The notes under the pieces are model-generated. The model was not told where the DNA came from. It did no database searches and saw nothing but the letters and a program-made list of their open reading frames with translations. A program made the translations under genes and the position numbers. From Burkholderiales bacterium (GTDB taxonomy: Bacteria; Pseudomonadota; Gammaproteobacteria; Burkholderiales; SG8-39): DNA of 64,000 nucleotides. Shown here one piece after another: positions 5,357 through 25,853 of this stretch. Where the stretch lies: NCBI GenBank assembly GCA_036394595.1, contig DASWEU010000201.1, positions 395-64,394 on the forward strand, written 5' to 3'. Within the stretch, counting starts at the first letter, position 1. Every line of letters starts with the position of its first letter.

Positions 5357-6160
5357 TCAGATCTTCCTCGCCTCGGCCAGGCTGAACAGGCCGCGCGGCC
5401 TGAAGGCGAGCACCATCGCCATCACCAGGTAGATGACGAACAGCTCGGCCTGCGGCAGGTAATGGATGGTGGCCGAGCGCACCAGGCCGACGATCAACGC
5501 GCCCAGCGCCGCGCCAGGCAGGCTGCCCAGGCCGCCGATCACCACCACCGCGAACGACAGCACGATCACCTCGACGCCCAGCCCCGGCACCACCGACACG
5601 GTCGGCGCGGTGAAGGCGCCGCCGATCGCCGCCAGCAGCGAGCCGAAGGTGAAGGTATAGAGGTACATGCGCTCGACATCGATGCCCATCGCGCGGCTCA
5701 TCTCGGTGTCGTGGATCACCGCCACCAGCAGCTTGCCGGTGCGCGTGTTGCCGAGCAGCCAGGTGAGCCCTGCGCCGCAGGCGACGGCCACGCCCACCAG
5801 GATCAGGTTGTAGTACGGATAGGTGAGATCGAGGAGGTCGAAGCTGCCGAGCAGGCCGTAGGGTTCGGCGATGAAATACGGGTTGACGCCCCAGACCAGC
5901 TTGATGACGTCCTCCAGGATCAGGAACAGGGCGTAGGTGATGAGCAGGATCACCACCTCGTCCTTGGCATACATGAAGCGCAGGATGCCGCGCTCGATCA
6001 GCGGCGCCACCACGACCGACACCAGCAGCGCCGAGCCGAGCAGCACGGCGTAGGACAGCGACGGCGGCATCCCCTTCGCCAGCAGCGCCCCGGTGATCGA
6101 CGCGGCCGCGTAGGCGCCGAGCGCGTAGAAGCTGCCGTGCGTCACGTTGACGATCTTCAT
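5357..6160 (-). CDS. Branched-chain amino acid ABC permease, LivH-like (the N-terminus probably extends to about 6253)
   Basis: Polytopic permease. In-frame upstream codons read LEQLLAVLIDGIIYSAWLFVAAVGLTLIYGV, which looks like the conserved first TM helix of LivH proteins, but there is no ATG/GTG/TTG there (see findings). Confidence 0.8.
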   Translation of the reverse strand: MKIVNVTHGSFYALGAYAAASITGALLAKGMPPSLSYAVLLGSALLVSVVVAPLIERGILRFMYAKDEVVILLITYALFLILEDVIKLVWGVNPYFIAEPYGLLGSFDLLDLTYPYYNLILVGVAVACGAGLTWLLGNTRTGKLLVAVIHDTEMSRAMGIDVERMYLYTFTFGSLLAAIGGAFTAPTVSVVPGLGVEVIVLSFAVVVIGGLGSLPGAALGALIVGLVRSATIHYLPQAELFVIYLVMAMVLAFRPRGLFSLAEARKI

Positions 6161-6254
6161 GACGCCGTAGATCAGCGTCAGTCCGACCGCGGCGACGAAC
6201 AGCCAGGCCGAGTAGATGATGCCGTCGATCAGGACGGCAAGAAGTTGTTCCAGA

Positions 6255-7535
6255 CTATTTCTTGAACCCTCTGGCGATCCAGTCCTCGGCCTTCACGCCA
6301 TCGGGCGGATTGACCATCGTCGCCGGGTAGCGCTTGACGTTGGCGACGGTCATCCTGCCCTTGACCATCCTGCTCACGCCGTACGCGGTCTCGGTGATCG
6401 CCTGGTGGCCGGCGCCGATCGCCATCTCGACCTTGCCCGCCGGGCTCTCGAAGCTCAGGCGCTCGAACGCCGCGATCACCTGGTCGGTAGCCGGGCGCTT
6501 GCCGCCGTTGGCGGCCGCGGCCTTCTCCCACGCCGCCTTGGTGCCGAGGATCGCCTGCGCCATCTGATACGCCGCGTAGTTGGGCGGCACGCCGTAGCGG
6601 TCGGCGAACGTCGACGAGAACCAGCGGTTCAGCTCGCTGTCCGGGGCGTAGGGGCCGTAGGGGCCGCGCGCACCGATCACCACGCCATCGGGAATCTGCC
6701 CGGCAAGCTTGTACATCGCGGTCTCGCCGGTGGTGAGGATCACCGTGCTGCGCTTGAACAGGCCGCGCGGGCCCGCCTGCAGGATGAAGGCCTCGAGGTC
6801 GCCGTCCCAGAAGCTCGAGTGCACCACGTCGGCCTTCGCGCCGAGGATGGTCGAGATCTCGGCGTTGTACTGCCCGGCGAACAGTTTCGGCATCTGCGAG
6901 GTGGCGACGCTCACGCCCGGCACCAGCTGCTTCATCGAGGCCTCGAAGTCGCCCCAGGAGTCCTGGCCCCAGGCGTAGTTCTGGTTGACGCCGGCGATGC
7001 TCTTGATCTTGCCGGCCTTCATTTCCTTCACGTAGAGCGCCGCGCCGACGCTGTCCATGGTCGCGGTCGAGGCGGTGCGGAACACGTACTTGTAGCCCTT
7101 CTCCTCGAAGATGCGCGGCGTGCCGCAGTCGAAGAACACGGTGAGCTTCTTCAGCTCCTCGGCCACCGGCGCGATGGCGAGGCAGTTGCCGCTCGAGACG
7201 TAGCCGATCACCAGGTCGACGTTGTCGCGCTGCGCGAGGTTGCGGAACTCCGTGACCTGGGTGGTGGCGGGGCCCGACTCGTCGAGCAGCTGCATCTGCA
7301 GCGCTGCGCCGCCGAATCCCTTCGCGGCGTAAGGCGCGGGCACCTTGCCGCCGTTCAGCATCTCGAACATGATTTCCGCCGCATTGCGTGCCGGGACGCC
7401 GAACGGGCTGGCGGCCGGCCCGGAGAGGAAAGTGACGATTGCGATCTTGAGCGGCGCTTCCTGGGCGTGCGCAACCGCCGGCATAAAGGTGGCAGCAACG
7501 ACGGCCGCGGCTACGGCATTCTGGATCCCTCGCAT
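6255..7535 (-). CDS. ABC transporter periplasmic substrate-binding protein (Leu/Ile/Val-binding family, type I PBP)
   Basis: Signal peptide MRGIQNAVAAAVVAATFMPAVAHA, AAGGAGGAG RBS just upstream of the ATG at 7535, and first position in the liv-like operon. Confidence 0.85.
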   Translation of the reverse strand: MRGIQNAVAAAVVAATFMPAVAHAQEAPLKIAIVTFLSGPAASPFGVPARNAAEIMFEMLNGGKVPAPYAAKGFGGAALQMQLLDESGPATTQVTEFRNLAQRDNVDLVIGYVSSGNCLAIAPVAEELKKLTVFFDCGTPRIFEEKGYKYVFRTASTATMDSVGAALYVKEMKAGKIKSIAGVNQNYAWGQDSWGDFEASMKQLVPGVSVATSQMPKLFAGQYNAEISTILGAKADVVHSSFWDGDLEAFILQAGPRGLFKRSTVILTTGETAMYKLAGQIPDGVVIGARGPYGPYAPDSELNRWFSSTFADRYGVPPNYAAYQMAQAILGTKAAWEKAAAANGGKRPATDQVIAAFERLSFESPAGKVEMAIGAGHQAITETAYGVSRMVKGRMTVANVKRYPATMVNPPDGVKAEDWIARGFKK

Positions 7536-18714: not shown

Positions 18715-18748
18715 CTCTAGTACGTCAGCCCCGTAACCTTCGTGTCAG

Positions 18749-19282
18749 TTGCTCCTATTCGAGGAGGGGCGAGATTTGACTCTCAGATTGAAGGAGCCGG
18801 CAAACGTACTCTTTAGGATCAAGCGGGGGTTAGCTGGATACGTTAGTTACCTCGCTGCGTGCGAGATGAACCCTATCTTTACGGAATACCTGCTTTACGA
18901 GCCTATCTTAAGAATACTTGCGGGTAGAGAGTACTTAGTTGAATGCGAGTACGAATGTCCGGGAATTGAACAACCGAAGAAAGGCGACAAGAAGAGAATT
19001 GACTTTGTGGCGAGGAAGGGCGATGTGCACTTTGCACTTGAGGTCAAGTGGGCGAAGGCGAAGCGTGTAATTGTTTCGCGTGATCTAAAGAAATTGCAGG
19101 CGTTTCAGAACGAATTTCCTGAGGCGAAATCATTTTTGTGCATTTTCGGAAGGAAACGTCACATTGAGAACCTCCGTCACCTAGACGAAGATTTTTGGGA
19201 ACGAGGGGAAATGGTAACTGCCGATTTCAAGAAAACGCGCTTTAGCTGCCGGGTATTCCAAATGAGGAGTTGGCTGGACTGA
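18749..19282 (+). CDS. Small PD-(D/E)xK nuclease-fold protein (restriction-endonuclease-like), hypothetical
   Basis: Core motif RIDFVARKGDVHFALEVKWAK (D ... E-x-K) preceded by a helix with conserved Glu (TEYLLYEPIL). The track start is a TTG at 18749. A TTG at 18776 has a better RBS (GAGGAGG at 18761-18767). Confidence 0.6.
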   Translation: MLLFEEGRDLTLRLKEPANVLFRIKRGLAGYVSYLAACEMNPIFTEYLLYEPILRILAGREYLVECEYECPGIEQPKKGDKKRIDFVARKGDVHFALEVKWAKAKRVIVSRDLKKLQAFQNEFPEAKSFLCIFGRKRHIENLRHLDEDFWERGEMVTADFKKTRFSCRVFQMRSWLD

Positions 19283-19492
19283 CCTCGAACGGCAATGCTG
19301 GCGAATATCAAGGCTCGGCTTTGGTACGCTACAGACGCGTTGCTCTCTCCCCCAAGTAGCGATTTAAGCCGCGGGATTAGGACATAGGGATAATTCCGGG
19401 TTGTGCTTCGTTATCCGTCTGCTGGACCGACGCTCCATGTAGGACTAGTCTCCACGCGGGGATTTTGCGTGGACGCCGAATAGTCGAGAGCA

Positions 19493-20494
19493 ATGGGGAT
19501 CTCAGTCATGCCAATCAAACCGCTTCGGGCAAGTGGCCTAACGTTCCATCGGTACCAGCGAGGGGTCAATCAGACCGATGATCAGAAAAAGCTACTAGTT
19601 TCATTGCTTGGTCTGGTCGGCGAGCTTGGCGATGTCCAAACGATATTCAAGCGTCGACTTGAAATTGGCCTTTACCCAAACTTTGATCTCGATATGGCCG
19701 AGGAGATCGGCGACACATTGTGGTATTTGACTAGTCTCGCGTCCCGAGTTGGACTGCGTATGGAGGACATAGCAGCAGAGAATATTTCAAAGGCGGCGCA
19801 ACTTCATTCGTTGGGCGACATCTATCAGTTCGACAAGGGATATGCGAAAGATGAACAACTGCCTCGTCAATTCGATGTTGTGTTCGAAGAAAAGCCACTG
19901 CGCAAAAGCATTCAGGTCAAGATTGTTGTCCGGGGCGTATTTGTTGGAGATGCACTGACCGACAACTCAATAAAGGATGACGGGTACCGGTATCACGACG
20001 CCTTTCACCTCGCATACGCGGCATGCCTGGGGTGGTCACCGGTCACCCGTTCTCTACTTAGGCGCAAGCGAAAAAGCGATCGGAGAATTGACGAAGTAGA
20101 GGACGGCGCTCGAGCTACGACCGTAGAAGAGGCTATTTCGATTTTCCTCTTCAATCAATCTCAAAAACGTAATGAGTATCGAGAGCTAAATGCAATCGAC
20201 ATAAGTTTGCTAAAGACAGTGCGGTCACTATGCGGCACCCTCGAGGTGCGACGTTGCACAGCCAAGCAATGGAGAGCGGCAATCTTTAGTGGATATCAAA
20301 TATTTCGTGCACTTCGAGACAACAAAGGTGGAATCGTTTCCTTGGATCTCAATAGAGCGTCAATAAGCTACTCGCCACTTCGACCGAGAAGCGTCAAGGG
20401 GAGGAATCATGCCGGACGTTCAGGCTCCAGACTGCCTAATCGCATGGCAAGAAGGCGCGCGAAAACTTCAAAAAGGTGGCGGCGAAGTCTTTAA
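19493..20494 (+). CDS. MazG-like all-alpha NTP pyrophosphohydrolase domain protein with an uncharacterised C-terminal half
   Basis: N-terminal LLGLVGELGDV ... EEIGDTLWYLTSLA matches the MazG/dimeric-dUTPase E-x2-E / E-x2-D metal-binding helices. The C-terminal approx. 200 aa (…DDGYRYHDAFHLAYAACLGW…) has no motif I can assign. The basic tail overlaps the next gene by 86 nt. Confidence 0.65.
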   Translation: MGISVMPIKPLRASGLTFHRYQRGVNQTDDQKKLLVSLLGLVGELGDVQTIFKRRLEIGLYPNFDLDMAEEIGDTLWYLTSLASRVGLRMEDIAAENISKAAQLHSLGDIYQFDKGYAKDEQLPRQFDVVFEEKPLRKSIQVKIVVRGVFVGDALTDNSIKDDGYRYHDAFHLAYAACLGWSPVTRSLLRRKRKSDRRIDEVEDGARATTVEEAISIFLFNQSQKRNEYRELNAIDISLLKTVRSLCGTLEVRRCTAKQWRAAIFSGYQIFRALRDNKGGIVSLDLNRASISYSPLRPRSVKGRNHAGRSGSRLPNRMARRRAKTSKRWRRSL

Positions 20495-21107
20495 TTTGAT
20501 AACTACAATTGATGTTCCCACCAGCTATCAATTGGGATGGCTGTCGACGTTTTCGCCTCACGCAGTTGTAGCTGGAAGTGATCGATTATTGGATGTCATT
20601 AACACCGTCTTTCCAGTTCGGCTTTCAAAGAAGAGTGCTTCTAGACCAGTTCTCTACGACTCATATGATCGTCTACATAAGCGTGCAATGAAATTGCCAC
20701 GCAATCGGTCGCGTTGGGGCACTTATTTCTCCCGCCTCACAGCGTACGGAGGCAAAACTAATCAACTGGAGACTGTAATCCAGAAGCTCAAAAAGTGGCC
20801 CCGCTATACGGCAGCCTTGGTATTTCACCTTTCTTGTCCGCTCTTGGACAAGCCGAGAACAAGAGGAGGGCCGTGCTGGCATTACGGTGAATTGATTTGG
20901 CGAAAAGGAGACGTACTAGATCTAGTAGTCGTTTACCGCAATCACGATTTCTTCAACAAAGCGCTCGGCAATTTCATCGCATTAGGACAACTTCTTAATT
21001 TCATCGCATCTGCTAGTGGAAAAAAGTCCGGCAAATTAATCTGCCATTCAGTTCACGCATATTCTCAGCAATCAATCAAACACCTAGTGGCGCTTGCGCA
21101 AATATAG
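20409..21107 (+). CDS. Divergent thymidylate-synthase-fold protein (TS / dNMP hydroxymethylase superfamily), 232 aa
   Basis: Collinear with the E. coli ThyA core:
- NQLETVIQKLKKWP vs IDQITTVLNQLKNDP;
- GGPCWHYGELIW vs LAPCHAFFQFYV (catalytic Cys);
- LDLVVVYRNHDFFNKALGNFIALGQLLNFIA vs [31 protein letters not shown];
- HSVHAYS vs GDTHLYS.
Strong RBS GGGGAGGA 4 nt before the ATG. Confidence 0.65.
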   Translation: MPDVQAPDCLIAWQEGARKLQKGGGEVFNLITTIDVPTSYQLGWLSTFSPHAVVAGSDRLLDVINTVFPVRLSKKSASRPVLYDSYDRLHKRAMKLPRNRSRWGTYFSRLTAYGGKTNQLETVIQKLKKWPRYTAALVFHLSCPLLDKPRTRGGPCWHYGELIWRKGDVLDLVVVYRNHDFFNKALGNFIALGQLLNFIASASGKKSGKLICHSVHAYSQQSIKHLVALAQI

Positions 21108-21116
21108 AGAGTTGAA

Positions 21117-22244
21117 TTGAATCCAGAAGCTGAAAAGACAAAAGCATTCGAGCAATTGGTCATTGAAGTTACCGCCTGTCGAAAATGTCCGCGAATGAAT
21201 TCGAGCGAAAGGATCTTTGGACATTCCTGTGGCGGACTAAACGCCTCGGTGATGTTTATTGGAGAAGCTCCAGGGCGACTTGGTGCTGACAACACGTTGA
21301 TACCCTTCCATGGAGATCAGTCCGGCCATAACTTTGAAAGCTTCCTATTGCAGGTCGGAATAAACAGATATGAAAGCTTTGTAACGAACGCAGTACTGTG
21401 CAATCCGAAGGACGAAAAAGGGAACAATGCCACTCCAACACTTGATGAAGTTCGAAACTGCAGTCCGTTTCTCCATAGACAACTCGATCTAGTCAAGCCC
21501 AAAGTTGTTGTTACCTTGGGCGCAATAGCGCTAAGGGCTGCGGCAAATGTTGAACCACACGGCCTAACTATCGCAAAGCACGTGCGAACGCTGAGGACCT
21601 GGTACGGGGCAAAGCTCATTCCTTTGTATCACCCTGGGCAGCGCGCGATGATGCACAGAAGCTTTTCGAATCAGCTTTCTGACTATCAGTCTGTTTCCGA
21701 AGCTATTCGAAATAGAAGCCCAAAAAAGACGCGCTTGGGCAGATATTCACCAAAGGTTGCTGCAATAGTTGAGTTGATACTTGCGCAGAAGCCAAGGATT
21801 AGCTATTTCGGTCTTCACAAACTCTATTACCTAATAGAACTAGAAGCCCGTAAAAGAATCGGTATGCGACTCACAAATAGCTACATTGTTAGACAGAAGG
21901 ATGGCCCATATTGCGTTGATCTTCACCTAGCAAAATTGAAACTAATGATTCCGAAATTGAACGTCGAGGCGCGCAGTAACAAAATTGCCTTGCGCGTTAC
22001 TGAGGCAAGCGATCTTTTTTTGGAATTGCAACCAAAACAGGCCATGCTAAATGAGGCTGAGAAGGATGTAGTTGTTGCAGTGGTCGCTCGTTATGGAACT
22101 TTGACGGACGCGGAGCTAAAGAGGCGCAGTTATTTGACCAGAGAGATGCGGAATATTCTCCGATCAGAGAAGCAAGCTAGAACAAATATGTTTAATGTCC
22201 CTCTGCTCTTACCAACCAGGGAGGAGCTCGCCCGTGACACCTGA
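21117..22244 (+). CDS. Family-4-type (Fe-S) uracil-DNA glycosylase superfamily domain fused to a C-terminal DUF4065/Panacea (SocA/GepA-like) domain
   Basis: UDG: CRKC...C(NP)...C(SPF) four-Cys pattern, motif A FIGEAPG, motif B LYHPGQRAM. C-terminal half: HKLYYLIELEARKRIGMRLTNSYIVRQKDGPYCVDL resembles the KLxKLLYxxQ...G...GPV pattern of DUF4065. Apparent TTG start. Confidence 0.65.
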   Translation: MNPEAEKTKAFEQLVIEVTACRKCPRMNSSERIFGHSCGGLNASVMFIGEAPGRLGADNTLIPFHGDQSGHNFESFLLQVGINRYESFVTNAVLCNPKDEKGNNATPTLDEVRNCSPFLHRQLDLVKPKVVVTLGAIALRAAANVEPHGLTIAKHVRTLRTWYGAKLIPLYHPGQRAMMHRSFSNQLSDYQSVSEAIRNRSPKKTRLGRYSPKVAAIVELILAQKPRISYFGLHKLYYLIELEARKRIGMRLTNSYIVRQKDGPYCVDLHLAKLKLMIPKLNVEARSNKIALRVTEASDLFLELQPKQAMLNEAEKDVVVAVVARYGTLTDAELKRRSYLTREMRNILRSEKQARTNMFNVPLLLPTREELARDT

Positions 22245-22740
22245 ACAGCAGTCTTTGACCAGCAATGACGAAGTAATTACAGCGCTACGCGATCATGCGT
22301 GGGACTACTTTGAATTGCACGCGGAGCAGCGCCTTAAAGCATTCCATTTCTACATTTTGCTGGAAACGGGTCTCGTCGCAGGTTTGCTTCTTGCGACTCG
22401 TGCCGGTTCACCGGACATTAGGATGATCACAGTCATTGGCTTATTAATGGCTTTCTTCTCAATTATTTTCTGGAAAATAGATTTCCGAACAAAAGGCATG
22501 ATCAAGATTTCGGAGGAGGCACTAAAGCTTTATGAGAAGCGAAAATTTGGAAACCAAAATGATGACGATTTAATTCATTCAACTCCCTTCTTGAATGACC
22601 CCCAAGTTAGAGGGCTTGTTGGCCGCTCTCCATTCGGTACGCTGTCTTACTCCAAATGCTTTGGAGCTGTATTCGCCGTCTTTGCGCTCCTCGGTCTCGT
22701 GATGTCAATCGGTGGAGCTGTAAATTTGCTTTGCCATTGA
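22234..22740 (+). CDS. Three-TM membrane protein (candidate effector/toxin), hypothetical
   Basis: Hydrophobic segments FHFYILLETGLVAGLLLAT, MITVIGLLMAFFSIIFW and FGAVFAVFALLGLVMSIGGAV. The GTG at 22234 is preceded by GGGAGGAG and overlaps the upstream stop by 11 nt. The alternative ATG at 22195 lacks an RBS. Confidence 0.55.
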   Translation: MTPEQQSLTSNDEVITALRDHAWDYFELHAEQRLKAFHFYILLETGLVAGLLLATRAGSPDIRMITVIGLLMAFFSIIFWKIDFRTKGMIKISEEALKLYEKRKFGNQNDDDLIHSTPFLNDPQVRGLVGRSPFGTLSYSKCFGAVFAVFALLGLVMSIGGAVNLLCH

Positions 22741-22763
22741 AACGCGTACGCAGTTAAGTCCTG

Positions 22764-23738
22764 ATGCGGAAGATCAGTATGAAATATTTACTCACCGCTT
22801 TCGCTATGCTCGGATTTGCTGGGGCTGTATTGGCGCAGACGTTCCCCGCCAGACCGGTTACCTTCATTGTTCCGTTCCCGCCGGGCGGCGGAACCGACAT
22901 CTCGGCGCGAACGGTGGCGACGAAACTTAGTGCGAAATGGCCCAATCCGGTGGTGGTGGAGAACCGAGGTGGGGCGGCGGGGATTCTCGGGGCGAATGCG
23001 GTGGCCCAGGCGAAGCCAGACGGGTACACGCTGCTGATCGTCAATGTCGGCATGACGTCGATCAATCCGGCGCTGTACGCGAAGCTGCCGTACGACCATG
23101 AGAAGGCGTTCGTGCCGGTGTCGCTGATCTGCGAGCTGCCGTTCGTGCTGATGGGGAGCCCGAAGTTCGCACCCAGTTCCGTGAAGGAGCTGGTGGCCTA
23201 CGCCAAGGCGAATCCGGACAAGGTGACGTTCGCGAGCTCGGGGCAGGGCGGGTCGCCGCACCTGACCGCCGAGATCTTCATGCTCGCCACGGGAACGAAG
23301 ATGACGCACGTGCCCTACAAGGGCGGCGGGCCGGCGATGACGGACCTGATGGCGGGGCACGTGGATCTCCTCTTCGCTTCTGTCCTTGAAGGCTCGGGGC
23401 ACATCAAGGCGGGCAAGCTCAAGGGCCTGGCCGTGAGCCACAGGAACCGCAATCCGGCGCTGCCGGAGGTGCCGACGCTCGCCGAGCAGGGGGTGAAGAA
23501 CGCCGAATCGGGGTCGTGGATCGCGCTGATGGCACCTGCGGGGACGCCGGCGGCGATCATCGAAAAAGTGAATTCGGATATCAAGGAAGCGGTGTCGGCG
23601 CCCGATGTGCGCGAGAGGCTGATTGCGCAGGGCGCGGTGCCGCAGGTGAGCACGCCGGCGGAGCTGCAGGCGCTGATCGCGAGCGATCTCGCGCGCTACG
23701 GGCGGATCATCCGCGAAAAAGGCCTGAAGGCGGAGTAG
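22764..23738 (+). CDS. Bug-family (TctC-like) substrate-binding protein
   Basis: Signal peptide plus FPARPVTFIVPFPPGGGTD, ENRGGAAG, PDGYTLL, HVPYKGGGP. Alternative ATG at 22779. Confidence 0.9.
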   Translation: MRKISMKYLLTAFAMLGFAGAVLAQTFPARPVTFIVPFPPGGGTDISARTVATKLSAKWPNPVVVENRGGAAGILGANAVAQAKPDGYTLLIVNVGMTSINPALYAKLPYDHEKAFVPVSLICELPFVLMGSPKFAPSSVKELVAYAKANPDKVTFASSGQGGSPHLTAEIFMLATGTKMTHVPYKGGGPAMTDLMAGHVDLLFASVLEGSGHIKAGKLKGLAVSHRNRNPALPEVPTLAEQGVKNAESGSWIALMAPAGTPAAIIEKVNSDIKEAVSAPDVRERLIAQGAVPQVSTPAELQALIASDLARYGRIIREKGLKAE

Positions 23739-25490: not shown

Positions 25491-25853
25491 ATGGCCAAGA
25501 TCCAATGGCTCGCGGAGCCCGAAGAGCATAATTACCCGGCGGCGCTGTCCTATCTTTCACTGGTGTTTGATCGGTTGCAGGCGGAATCTCTCGTCCACGA
25601 GTTGAAGCACGCGGGGATGTCGCAATTCAAGGCCAAGGACATTTTCCGCGCCTCGGGGCTATCGCTGCTCGGCGTCAGCAATTCGCACGTGAAGAAGGAC
25701 CAGAAGAAGATCCGTGACGGCAAGAAGCTCTCGCCGCTGCTGCTGGCGCGCCACAAGGCCTCGGGCCGGGTGATCGTCGCCGACGGCTATCACCGCCTGT
25801 GCGCGGTCTACGGCTACGACGAGGACGCCGTCATCCCCTGCAAGATCGCCTGA
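25491..25853 (+). CDS. Small ParB/sulfiredoxin-fold-like protein, hypothetical
   Basis: C-terminal VIVADGYHRLCAVY resembles the DGxHR motif of ParB N-terminal/Srx-fold domains. No partner genes. Confidence 0.4.
   Translation: MAKIQWLAEPEEHNYPAALSYLSLVFDRLQAESLVHELKHAGMSQFKAKDIFRASGLSLLGVSNSHVKKDQKKIRDGKKLSPLLLARHKASGRVIVADGYHRLCAVYGYDEDAVIPCKIA

Follow-up and report, generated by a model that had tools for sequence, protein, structure and literature searches.

A uracil-DNA glycosylase-Panacea fusion in a mobile three-gene cassette that is a candidate anti-phage system acting on pyrimidines

Introduction

Which gene product does a Panacea domain serve when it is fused to a DNA glycosylase? 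The question is raised by a 64,000-nucleotide (nt) stretch of DNA from a Burkholderiales bacterium (GenBank assembly GCA_036394595.1, contig DASWEU010000201.1, positions 395 to 64,394), referred to here as the window, in which gene D (21117..22244, + strand) encodes a 375-amino-acid (aa) protein with an N-terminal uracil-DNA glycosylase (UDG) domain and a C-terminal Panacea domain. Panacea is an antitoxin domain paired with dozens of unrelated toxins, and DNA glycosylases have recently been recognised as anti-phage proteins; the fusion joins the two and is strictly linked to two nucleotide-metabolism enzymes across many phyla. From inspection of the window alone, D had been predicted to form a sensor-antitoxin and membrane toxin pair with the overlapping downstream gene E (the original prediction). 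We found that D is the third gene of a conserved, mobile cassette whose other members, genes B and C, lie upstream, and that E is not its general partner.

Results

The UDG::Panacea fusion is genuine

The survey for other UDG-DUF4065 fusions suggested alongside the original prediction, a search of 5.8 billion proteins with D, returned 2176 matches at E<1e-5, and among the best 120 of these nearly all were 349 to 401 aa in length, many carrying both Pfam domains. Among the source taxa are Polaromonas, Paucimonas, Collimonas, Chloroflexota, and Alphaproteobacteria. When the Panacea half by itself served as the query of an exhaustive HMMER search, 105 relatives were identified, and the sequences inspected were fusion proteins. 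Matches of approximately 190 aa that seem to be stand-alone Panacea proteins begin at an internal Met in M..HRSFANQLADYQF. This segment is the UDG tail and, because it is retained, the matches are 5'-truncated gene calls and not separate genes. No split UDG and Panacea genes were found among the D relatives. A frameshift or assembly artefact was considered and rejected, as full-length fusions number in the thousands and the short matches are truncated calls. The fusion is genuine and defines a large full-length family present in at least eight bacterial phyla.

The TTG start of D at 21117 agrees with the N termini of homologues and is required to include the CxxC motif. Public 349-aa gene calls (P0001) begin at Met27, so that C21 and C24 of this motif are lost (window positions 21117 to 21197); public annotations that start D at Met27 should be corrected. 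A metagenomic protein of 261 aa (P0150) has a MazG N-terminal domain joined to a D-family Panacea half, with no thymidylate synthase (TS)-like or UDG part, and may have arisen by natural deletion or as an assembly chimera.

D has the sequence features of an excising glycosylase

The family-4-type UDG domain of D spans 21117..21704 (+ strand; residues 1 to 196) and contains four Fe-S cysteines, GEAPG, PFHGD, N91, and HPG. The family 4 signature recognised in the original prediction (CxxC plus two further cysteines, GEAPG, and HPG) was borne out. D scores 92.3 bits against Pfam UDG (PF03167; cut-off, 24.3) over residues 40 to 184, and C21, C24, C95, C115, GEAPG (49 to 53), and HPG (172 to 174, motif B) are invariant in 26 homologues. 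D aligns with the Thermotoga maritima family 4 UDG TM0511 (PDB 1vk2; E 2e-28) and also with 1ui0, and its four cysteines, putative 4Fe-4S ligands, align with the Fe-S cysteines of TM0511. With the family 4 UDGs TM0511 and Thermus thermophilus UDGA, D shares the cluster cysteines, GEAPG, and PF, and the N of the NxxxC motif and the HP(S/G) motif also align. It differs from them in having a 4-residue insertion after CNP, HPG rather than HPS, its own signature GRLGAD/PFHGD(K/Q)(S/A)GHNFE, and a 180-residue C-terminal extension. The NCBIfam cut-offs of TIGR00758 (89.6 versus 125.3) and NF040953 (97 versus 250) are missed. Judged by its sequence, D represents a divergent family 4 UDG subfamily and not an equivalog, and it retains the full catalytic set of an excising family 4 UDG.

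D carries a C-terminal Panacea domain

The Panacea (PF13274) domain of D lies at 21801..22133 (+ strand; residues ~229 to 339). The C-terminal half had been likened to DUF4065, and the hidden Markov model search agreed, as D scores 29.8 bits against SocA_Panacea (PF13274, DUF4065; cut-off, 25.7) with an E value of 1.2e-6, residues 233 to 339 matching positions 1 to 107 of the 113-position profile. Many D homologues have a precomputed Panacea domain annotation. The PanA study identified GPV as the Panacea signature, critical for neutralisation, and reported that PanA acts by direct binding (PMC8832971). In D, the motif RQKDGPY (259 to 265), invariant in 26 homologues, places G263-P264-Y265 at the GPV signature position, with Y replacing V, and the domain is followed by a conserved helical tail that extends to residue ~365. 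The structure model of the C-terminal 180 residues of D is confident (pLDDT, 90; pTM, 0.86). The best structural matches to the Panacea half in BFVD are phage proteins of 127 to 150 aa (E 2e-5 and 5e-3; probability, 1.0) with TM scores of 0.66 to 0.68 on the target, and one is annotated as 'Antitoxin SocA-like Panacea domain-containing protein'. Foldseek comparison of the Panacea half with the PDB gave weak winged-helix-like and DarTG-complex matches (E>=0.15) and no Panacea match. The Pfam score, the GPx signature, and the fold place the C-terminal half of D in the Panacea domain family.

D is the third gene of a conserved and mobile cassette

To survey the loci, one genome per species was searched across 185,579 species, and the best 80 of 154 relatives were taken; these come from Proteobacteria, Bacteroidota, Verrucomicrobiota, Nitrospirota, Cyanobacteria, Acidobacteriota, Chloroflexota, and Planctomycetota. 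For gene content, all open reading frames (ORFs) of 92 loci, four contigs of which represent the window's own locus, were searched with five window proteins. Gene B (19493..20494, + strand), cassette gene 1, encodes a predicted MazG-type NTP pyrophosphohydrolase with MazG_C, and gene C (20409..21107, + strand), cassette gene 2 and the invariant neighbour of the fusion, encodes a 232-aa protein with a predicted TS fold. B was present in 85 of the 92 loci, C in 91, and D in all 92, and the genes were collinear in nearly all; the order B-C-D was found in Paucimonas, Collimonas, alphaproteobacterial, Variovorax, and metagenomic contigs, and around distant homologues the middle gene encodes a protein of ~235 aa. 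From the C stop to the D start the median distance is -4 nt, with values between -60 and +40 nt in 75 of 79 loci, while the B to C spacing has a median of +3 nt. A search seeded with C identified 955 homologues and added two further genomes with B-C-D, with 4-nt overlaps and no membrane gene. No fourth conserved gene was found when ORFs within 3 kb were clustered (the maximum was 5 of 80 loci), and family scans of 141 immediate neighbours gave no family with more than three members. As gene content, order, and coupling are conserved, the unit under selection is the three-gene cassette, with C-D as its invariant core. In Paucimonas (L001), as in the window, B and C overlap by 86 nt; elsewhere the two genes mostly overlap by 4 nt or abut.

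The G+C content of the cassette is below that of its flanks in 67 of 67 loci, with a median difference of 11.7 points, and its neighbours vary, including DarTG, Shedu, Mrr, HNH, type I and II restriction genes, MzaA, PADLOC candidates, integrases, and a resolvase. The cassette is mobile and horizontally transferred. In the window it lies within a low-G+C island of approximately 4 kb (~18715..22763, unstranded; 47.8% G+C versus 66.6% for the remaining window), situated between a thiamine pyrophosphate-dependent oxidoreductase gene and a TctC-family gene and containing five co-directional ORFs, A to E.

B and C are predicted pyrimidine nucleotide enzymes

B matches PF18722 (MazG_C) with an E value of 1e-71, PF03819 weakly, and PHROG 229 (MazG-like) at 2e-29. 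It has the MazG metal-binding helices, and its N terminus weakly resembles the dCTP pyrophosphatase DCTPP1; according to the literature, MazG_C is a predicted nucleotide kinase. C matches TIGR03283 at 1.4e-12 (47.6 bits; cut-off, 174.55), Pfam PF00303 at 18.8 (cut-off, 24.3), and the PHROG thymidylate synthase at 2e-6, and its profile-to-PDB matches are almost all thymidylate synthases. P155-C156, R177, D180, and N188 of C align with Cys146, R166, D169, and N177 of the E. coli-type enzymes, and its HAY motif aligns with the H207/Y209 region of TS; P155-C156, R177, D180, N188, H179, and G187 are invariant. C appears to have a TS fold with the catalytic residues kept, without being an orthologue.

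The classes dUTPase, thymidylate synthase, and UDG make up the canonical uracil-exclusion pathway. All three enzyme classes of the cassette fit uracil exclusion, and the nearest relatives of D's UDG half are bona fide family 4 UDGs, so the cassette could be read as a mobile uracil-sanitation repair module that keeps host or mobile-element DNA free of uracil, with B as a dUTPase-like MazG and with no role in conflict. We regard this as very improbable. The 154 relatives among 185,579 species genomes are scattered over phyla, cassette G+C is always below that of the host, B, C, and D all score below the curated cut-offs of the housekeeping families, and defence genes are found among the neighbours. 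A fused Panacea domain, moreover, has no place in repair.

Variant cassettes and the parallel with phage DNA modification

In one locus (L091, 2518 to 3231), a dCTP-deaminase-like gene (PF22769) replaces MazG directly upstream of the TS-like gene, and in another (L071, 8073 to 8912) a dCTP-deaminase-like gene (PF22769), whose product has a C-terminal transmembrane (TM) segment, is located 8 nt after D. Five loci from Chloroflexota and Planctomycetota (L084, L085, L088, L089, and L092; ~5900 to 7000) have no MazG and carry a radical-SAM gene directly upstream of D. The genes of this variant match PF04055, with a weak SPASM match, and encode proteins of approximately 345 to 360 aa. In four of the five the radical-SAM gene lies between C and D, and L092 is without detectable C. 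Another nucleotide enzyme can stand in for B, with C and D retained.

Phage clusters for thymidine hypermodification encode a TS-like deoxyuridine monophosphate (dUMP) hydroxymethylase, a kinase, a glycosylase-fold protein, and sometimes a radical-SAM enzyme (Lee et al. 2018, PMC5889632), a set that the cassette parallels. A cellular DNA-modification pathway of this kind would have MazG supply dUMP or clear dTTP, the TS-like enzyme make 5-hydroxymethyl-dUMP or a similar nucleotide, MazG_C act as the kinase, and the UDG-fold domain flip the modified base to process rather than destroy it. The enzyme classes correspond to the phage dUMP hydroxymethyltransferase, kinase, glycosylase-fold 'pyrophosphorylase', and radical-SAM enzyme (PMC5889632); the description of MazG-C as a predicted nucleotide kinase and the existence of the radical-SAM variant point the same way, as does a locus (L093) in which an E homologue is located a few kb from a MazG_C gene adjoining a HMUDK_hel gene. 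However, the clusters described by Lee et al. are phage-borne and their glycosylase-like enzymes have a helix-hairpin-helix fold, not a UDG fold, with P-loop 5-HMUDK kinases (PMC5889632), whereas the cassette is bacterial and chromosomal and went undetected in sequenced phages. Within 3 kb, no restriction or reader partner was conserved, D keeps the predicted excising family 4 catalytic set, and the literature found places the Panacea domain in toxin-antitoxin and defence settings alone, with no obvious role for it in modification. This pathway is therefore an unlikely explanation of the cassette.

The membrane gene E is not the general partner of D

Gene E (22234..22740, + strand) encodes a 168-aa protein with three TM segments. 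The overlap and membrane topology described in the original prediction hold, as coordinates and hydropathy agree: E starts with GTG at 22234, overlapping by 11 nt the 3' end of D, whose TGA stop is at 22242 to 22244, and is preceded by a GGGAGGAG ribosome-binding site (RBS) at 22219..22226 (+ strand) within the 3' end of D. The start is supported by the N termini of 18 homologues (alignment A3), TM segments were identified at residues 36 to 54, 64 to 82, and 145 to 163, and the structure model consists of three long helices. E is a borderline member of Pfam 8xMP (PF24838), scoring 27.8 bits against a cut-off of 30, and its homologues P0137, P0138, and P0139 score 30.8, 29.4, and 26.0, respectively. 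The E family comprises 19 homologue clusters. In one member (P0138, 286 aa), the 8xMP-like membrane part is fused to a BP74_N domain (PF23621; E 2e-42) at the N terminus. SLATT or another known effector was rejected as an identity for E, as Pfam gives the borderline 8xMP match alone and sequence and Foldseek searches of the PDB were uninformative. PADLOC has no model for E. A literature search found nothing on '8xMP' or 'octameric membrane protein' in the sense that applies to E.

Three E homologues (P0122, P0124, and P0132) share short contigs with D homologues of 57 to 74% identity (P0002, P0004, and P0042), and one contig with E after D was confirmed directly, with a 44-nt gap. E is thus retained beside D in the nearest subclade of the window. 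Beyond this, E was absent from 80 of 80 other genome loci, including that of a 73%-identical relative (L013), which carries no remnant of E, and tblastn detected no unannotated remnants of E or A; within the 92 loci, A and E were confined to the four near-identical contigs of the window's own locus. E homologues also occur with no Panacea gene nearby (L093 to L096). In the first of these (L093, 1 to 6501), a 50%-identical E homologue stands alone, divergent from its neighbours; a different nucleotide island a few kb away, which has no UDG-Panacea gene, contains a 5-hmdU DNA kinase helical domain gene (HMUDK_hel), MazG plus MazG_C, an uncharacterised 268-aa protein, Peptidase_C1, and an M78 peptidase with a helix-turn-helix (HTH) domain. 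In the other three (L094 to L096), the E homologue follows an uncharacterised 476-aa protein.

Genes downstream of D are heterogeneous, and a membrane ORF is found close behind D in approximately 5 of 80 loci, which we judge, against an estimated baseline, to be no higher than the usual bacterial share of membrane proteins. In two alphaproteobacterial loci (L032, 8113 to 8823, and L048, 8096 to 8815), D is followed at -3 and +10 nt, respectively, by a 237- to 240-aa protein with approximately four TM segments and no Pfam match. This protein is unrelated in sequence to E, and the MazG/MazG_C gene of these loci is convergent on the other strand. No link between E and the other membrane ORFs downstream of D emerged in four jackhmmer rounds.

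In the original prediction, base detection by the UDG domain of a sensor-antitoxin D would free E; in the fuller form considered here, E would then depolarise the membrane in abortive infection. The domains, the fusion, and the overlap on which it was built are real, and the 11-nt overlap behind a strong RBS, the E homologues directly after D homologues of 57 to 74% identity in the nearest subclade, the neutralisation of membrane-depolarising toxins by PanA antitoxins (PMC8832971), and the different four-TM protein tightly coupled behind D in L032 and L048 all fit a D-E pair. The pairing itself was not supported. Conservation of the partner across species, the criterion for PanAT pairs, was not found for D and E; B and C are conserved instead. 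Because the Panacea residues are invariant across loci without E, the conserved role of the domain cannot be neutralisation of E, contrary to the idea that it exists for this purpose. E homologues that lack a Panacea neighbour are awkward for a constitutive toxin that needs an antitoxin, membrane ORFs near D are at an estimated background share, and sequence and Foldseek searches of the PDB detected no similarity between E and solved structures or known pore-formers. We consider the D-E pair decidedly doubtful as an account of the fusion. E is a subclade-specific accessory and not the general partner of D.

Gene A and the borders of the island

Gene A (18749..19282, + strand), a 177-aa (or 168-aa) ORF with a PD-(D/E)xK or Hjc-like nuclease fold, gave weak Hjc matches (Pfam, 1.3e-3; NCBIfam, 1.1e-4) and weak PADLOC PD-(D/E)xK matches, and is a lineage-specific accessory. 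A and E may be optional effectors or accessories added in the window's lineage. No tRNA, integrase, or direct or flanking repeat was detected at the island borders of the window, and a scan for promoters and terminators gave results at or below chance. The TctC-family gene begins 23 nt past the stop of E (window positions 22741 to 22764), exactly at the jump in G+C; as its start is only 23 nt from that stop, its RBS and probably its promoter are inside the acquired island. Further downstream, a 120-aa ORF (25491 to 25853) with no significant family match coincides with a local G+C dip (~60%), and it contains a DGYHR motif that we take to resemble ParB/sulfiredoxin-fold proteins.

Discussion

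Comparison with known systems

D shares the Panacea domain of the PanA-PanT systems (Kurata et al. 2022, PMC8832971) by Pfam, fold, and GPx signature; its layout, in which Panacea comes after an N-terminal nucleic-acid-binding domain, matches that of HTH-PanA and PAD1-PanA, and it is likewise translationally coupled to its neighbours. In contrast to PanA, the N terminus of D is a putative Fe-S DNA glycosylase, whereas the PanA study reports HTH and PAD1 extensions only and neither uracil nor glycosylase is mentioned in it or its supplements (PMC8832971). The conserved unit here is also three enzymes rather than a pair, with the TS-fold or the MazG enzyme as candidate 'toxin'. A single-sequence search with the Panacea subfamily of D found fusion proteins only and no canonical PanA.

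DefensePredictor, a machine-learning approach, lists MazG/MazG-C/NMAD/UDG as a predicted, unvalidated defence system (Science 2026, PMC13092281, Fig. 6F/S12B). As in the cassette, a MazG plus MazG-C gene and a UDG gene are placed in one operon, sometimes in defence islands. The middle domain is annotated there, in an HHpred-like manner, as NMAD, whereas C scores TS-like and has no Pfam Nmad match; one neighbour gene among the surveyed loci is Nmad2. In the portions of the DefensePredictor text and supplements available to us, the Panacea domain is not linked to the system. The cassette and this system are probably identical or closely related. No other source recovered in our literature search combines MazG, thymidylate synthase, UDG, and defence.

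Brig1 is a UDG-fold defence glycosylase against modified-base phages (PMC11078745), and Brig2 defends against thymidine-hypermodified Pseudomonas phages (10.1101/2025.10.29.685425). Both belong to the UDG superfamily, are found in mobile A/T-rich loci like that of D, and excise modified pyrimidines from phage DNA. Each protects when expressed alone, whereas D comes joined to Panacea and in strict linkage with two nucleotide enzymes, and D differs from both in being of the classical 4Fe-4S family 4 type. When PDB sequences were searched with a D-family profile, no match bore the name Brig1.

A candidate conflict system acting on pyrimidines

The conserved enzyme set, low G+C, variable flanks, defence neighbours, DefensePredictor listing, and defence UDGs together favour the reading of the cassette as a mobile three-gene candidate anti-phage or conflict system acting on pyrimidine nucleotides and DNA bases, to which we assign a probability of roughly 0.58. 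As predicted from their families, B, C, D, and the substitutes of B would all act on pyrimidine deoxynucleotides or on pyrimidines in DNA, for the radical-SAM gene by inference, and the cassette would target one pyrimidine at three levels: the triphosphate pool, the monophosphate, and the base in DNA. B would be a deoxynucleoside triphosphate (dNTP) pyrophosphohydrolase, and C would attack C6 of a (deoxy)uridylate-like nucleotide. Together they may alter the pyrimidine dNTP pool by making or destroying a C5-modified or uracil nucleotide, and the D glycosylase may then remove the corresponding base, leaving abasic sites in replicating phage DNA in the manner of Brig1 and Brig2. The Panacea domain, in a PanA-like role, could bind and restrain one of the cassette enzymes, and the most likely candidate for its partner is the translationally coupled TS-like C, not E.

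Several observations weigh against this conflict-system interpretation. The immediate neighbours of the cassette also include ordinary housekeeping genes. Searches of 50,697 phage and 72,556 plasmid records did not detect the cassette and gave matches to the UDG half only, and PADLOC v2 contains no model matching B, C, or D above noise. The TS-like and MazG assignments of C and B are below the curated cut-offs of the canonical families, and C matches no Pfam Nmad family at E<=1. Finally, invariant adjacency is the sole ground for choosing C as the Panacea partner.

A more tentative proposal, which we hold to be possible at rather low odds, is that the cassette is a toxin-antitoxin-like abortive-infection device in which a TS-fold toxin, with MazG/MazG-C or its substitutes, would corrupt the pyrimidine pool under the restraint of a glycosylase-controlled Panacea antitoxin. 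Engagement of the glycosylase with phage DNA containing uracil or C5-modified bases, or a phage glycosylase inhibitor, would then release the enzyme, and the membrane protein and nuclease would be further effectors in this lineage.

The Panacea component, the strict three-gene structure, and the variants are not described in the literature found. If the cassette, as we favour, is a defensive conflict system, D would carry the first Panacea domain wired to a DNA-base-reading enzyme, and B-C-D would provide a compact three-gene model coupling nucleotide-pool chemistry to base excision. A defensive role would also give a function to MazG_C and to a large group of proteins annotated, by similarity alone, as 'thymidylate synthase family protein'.

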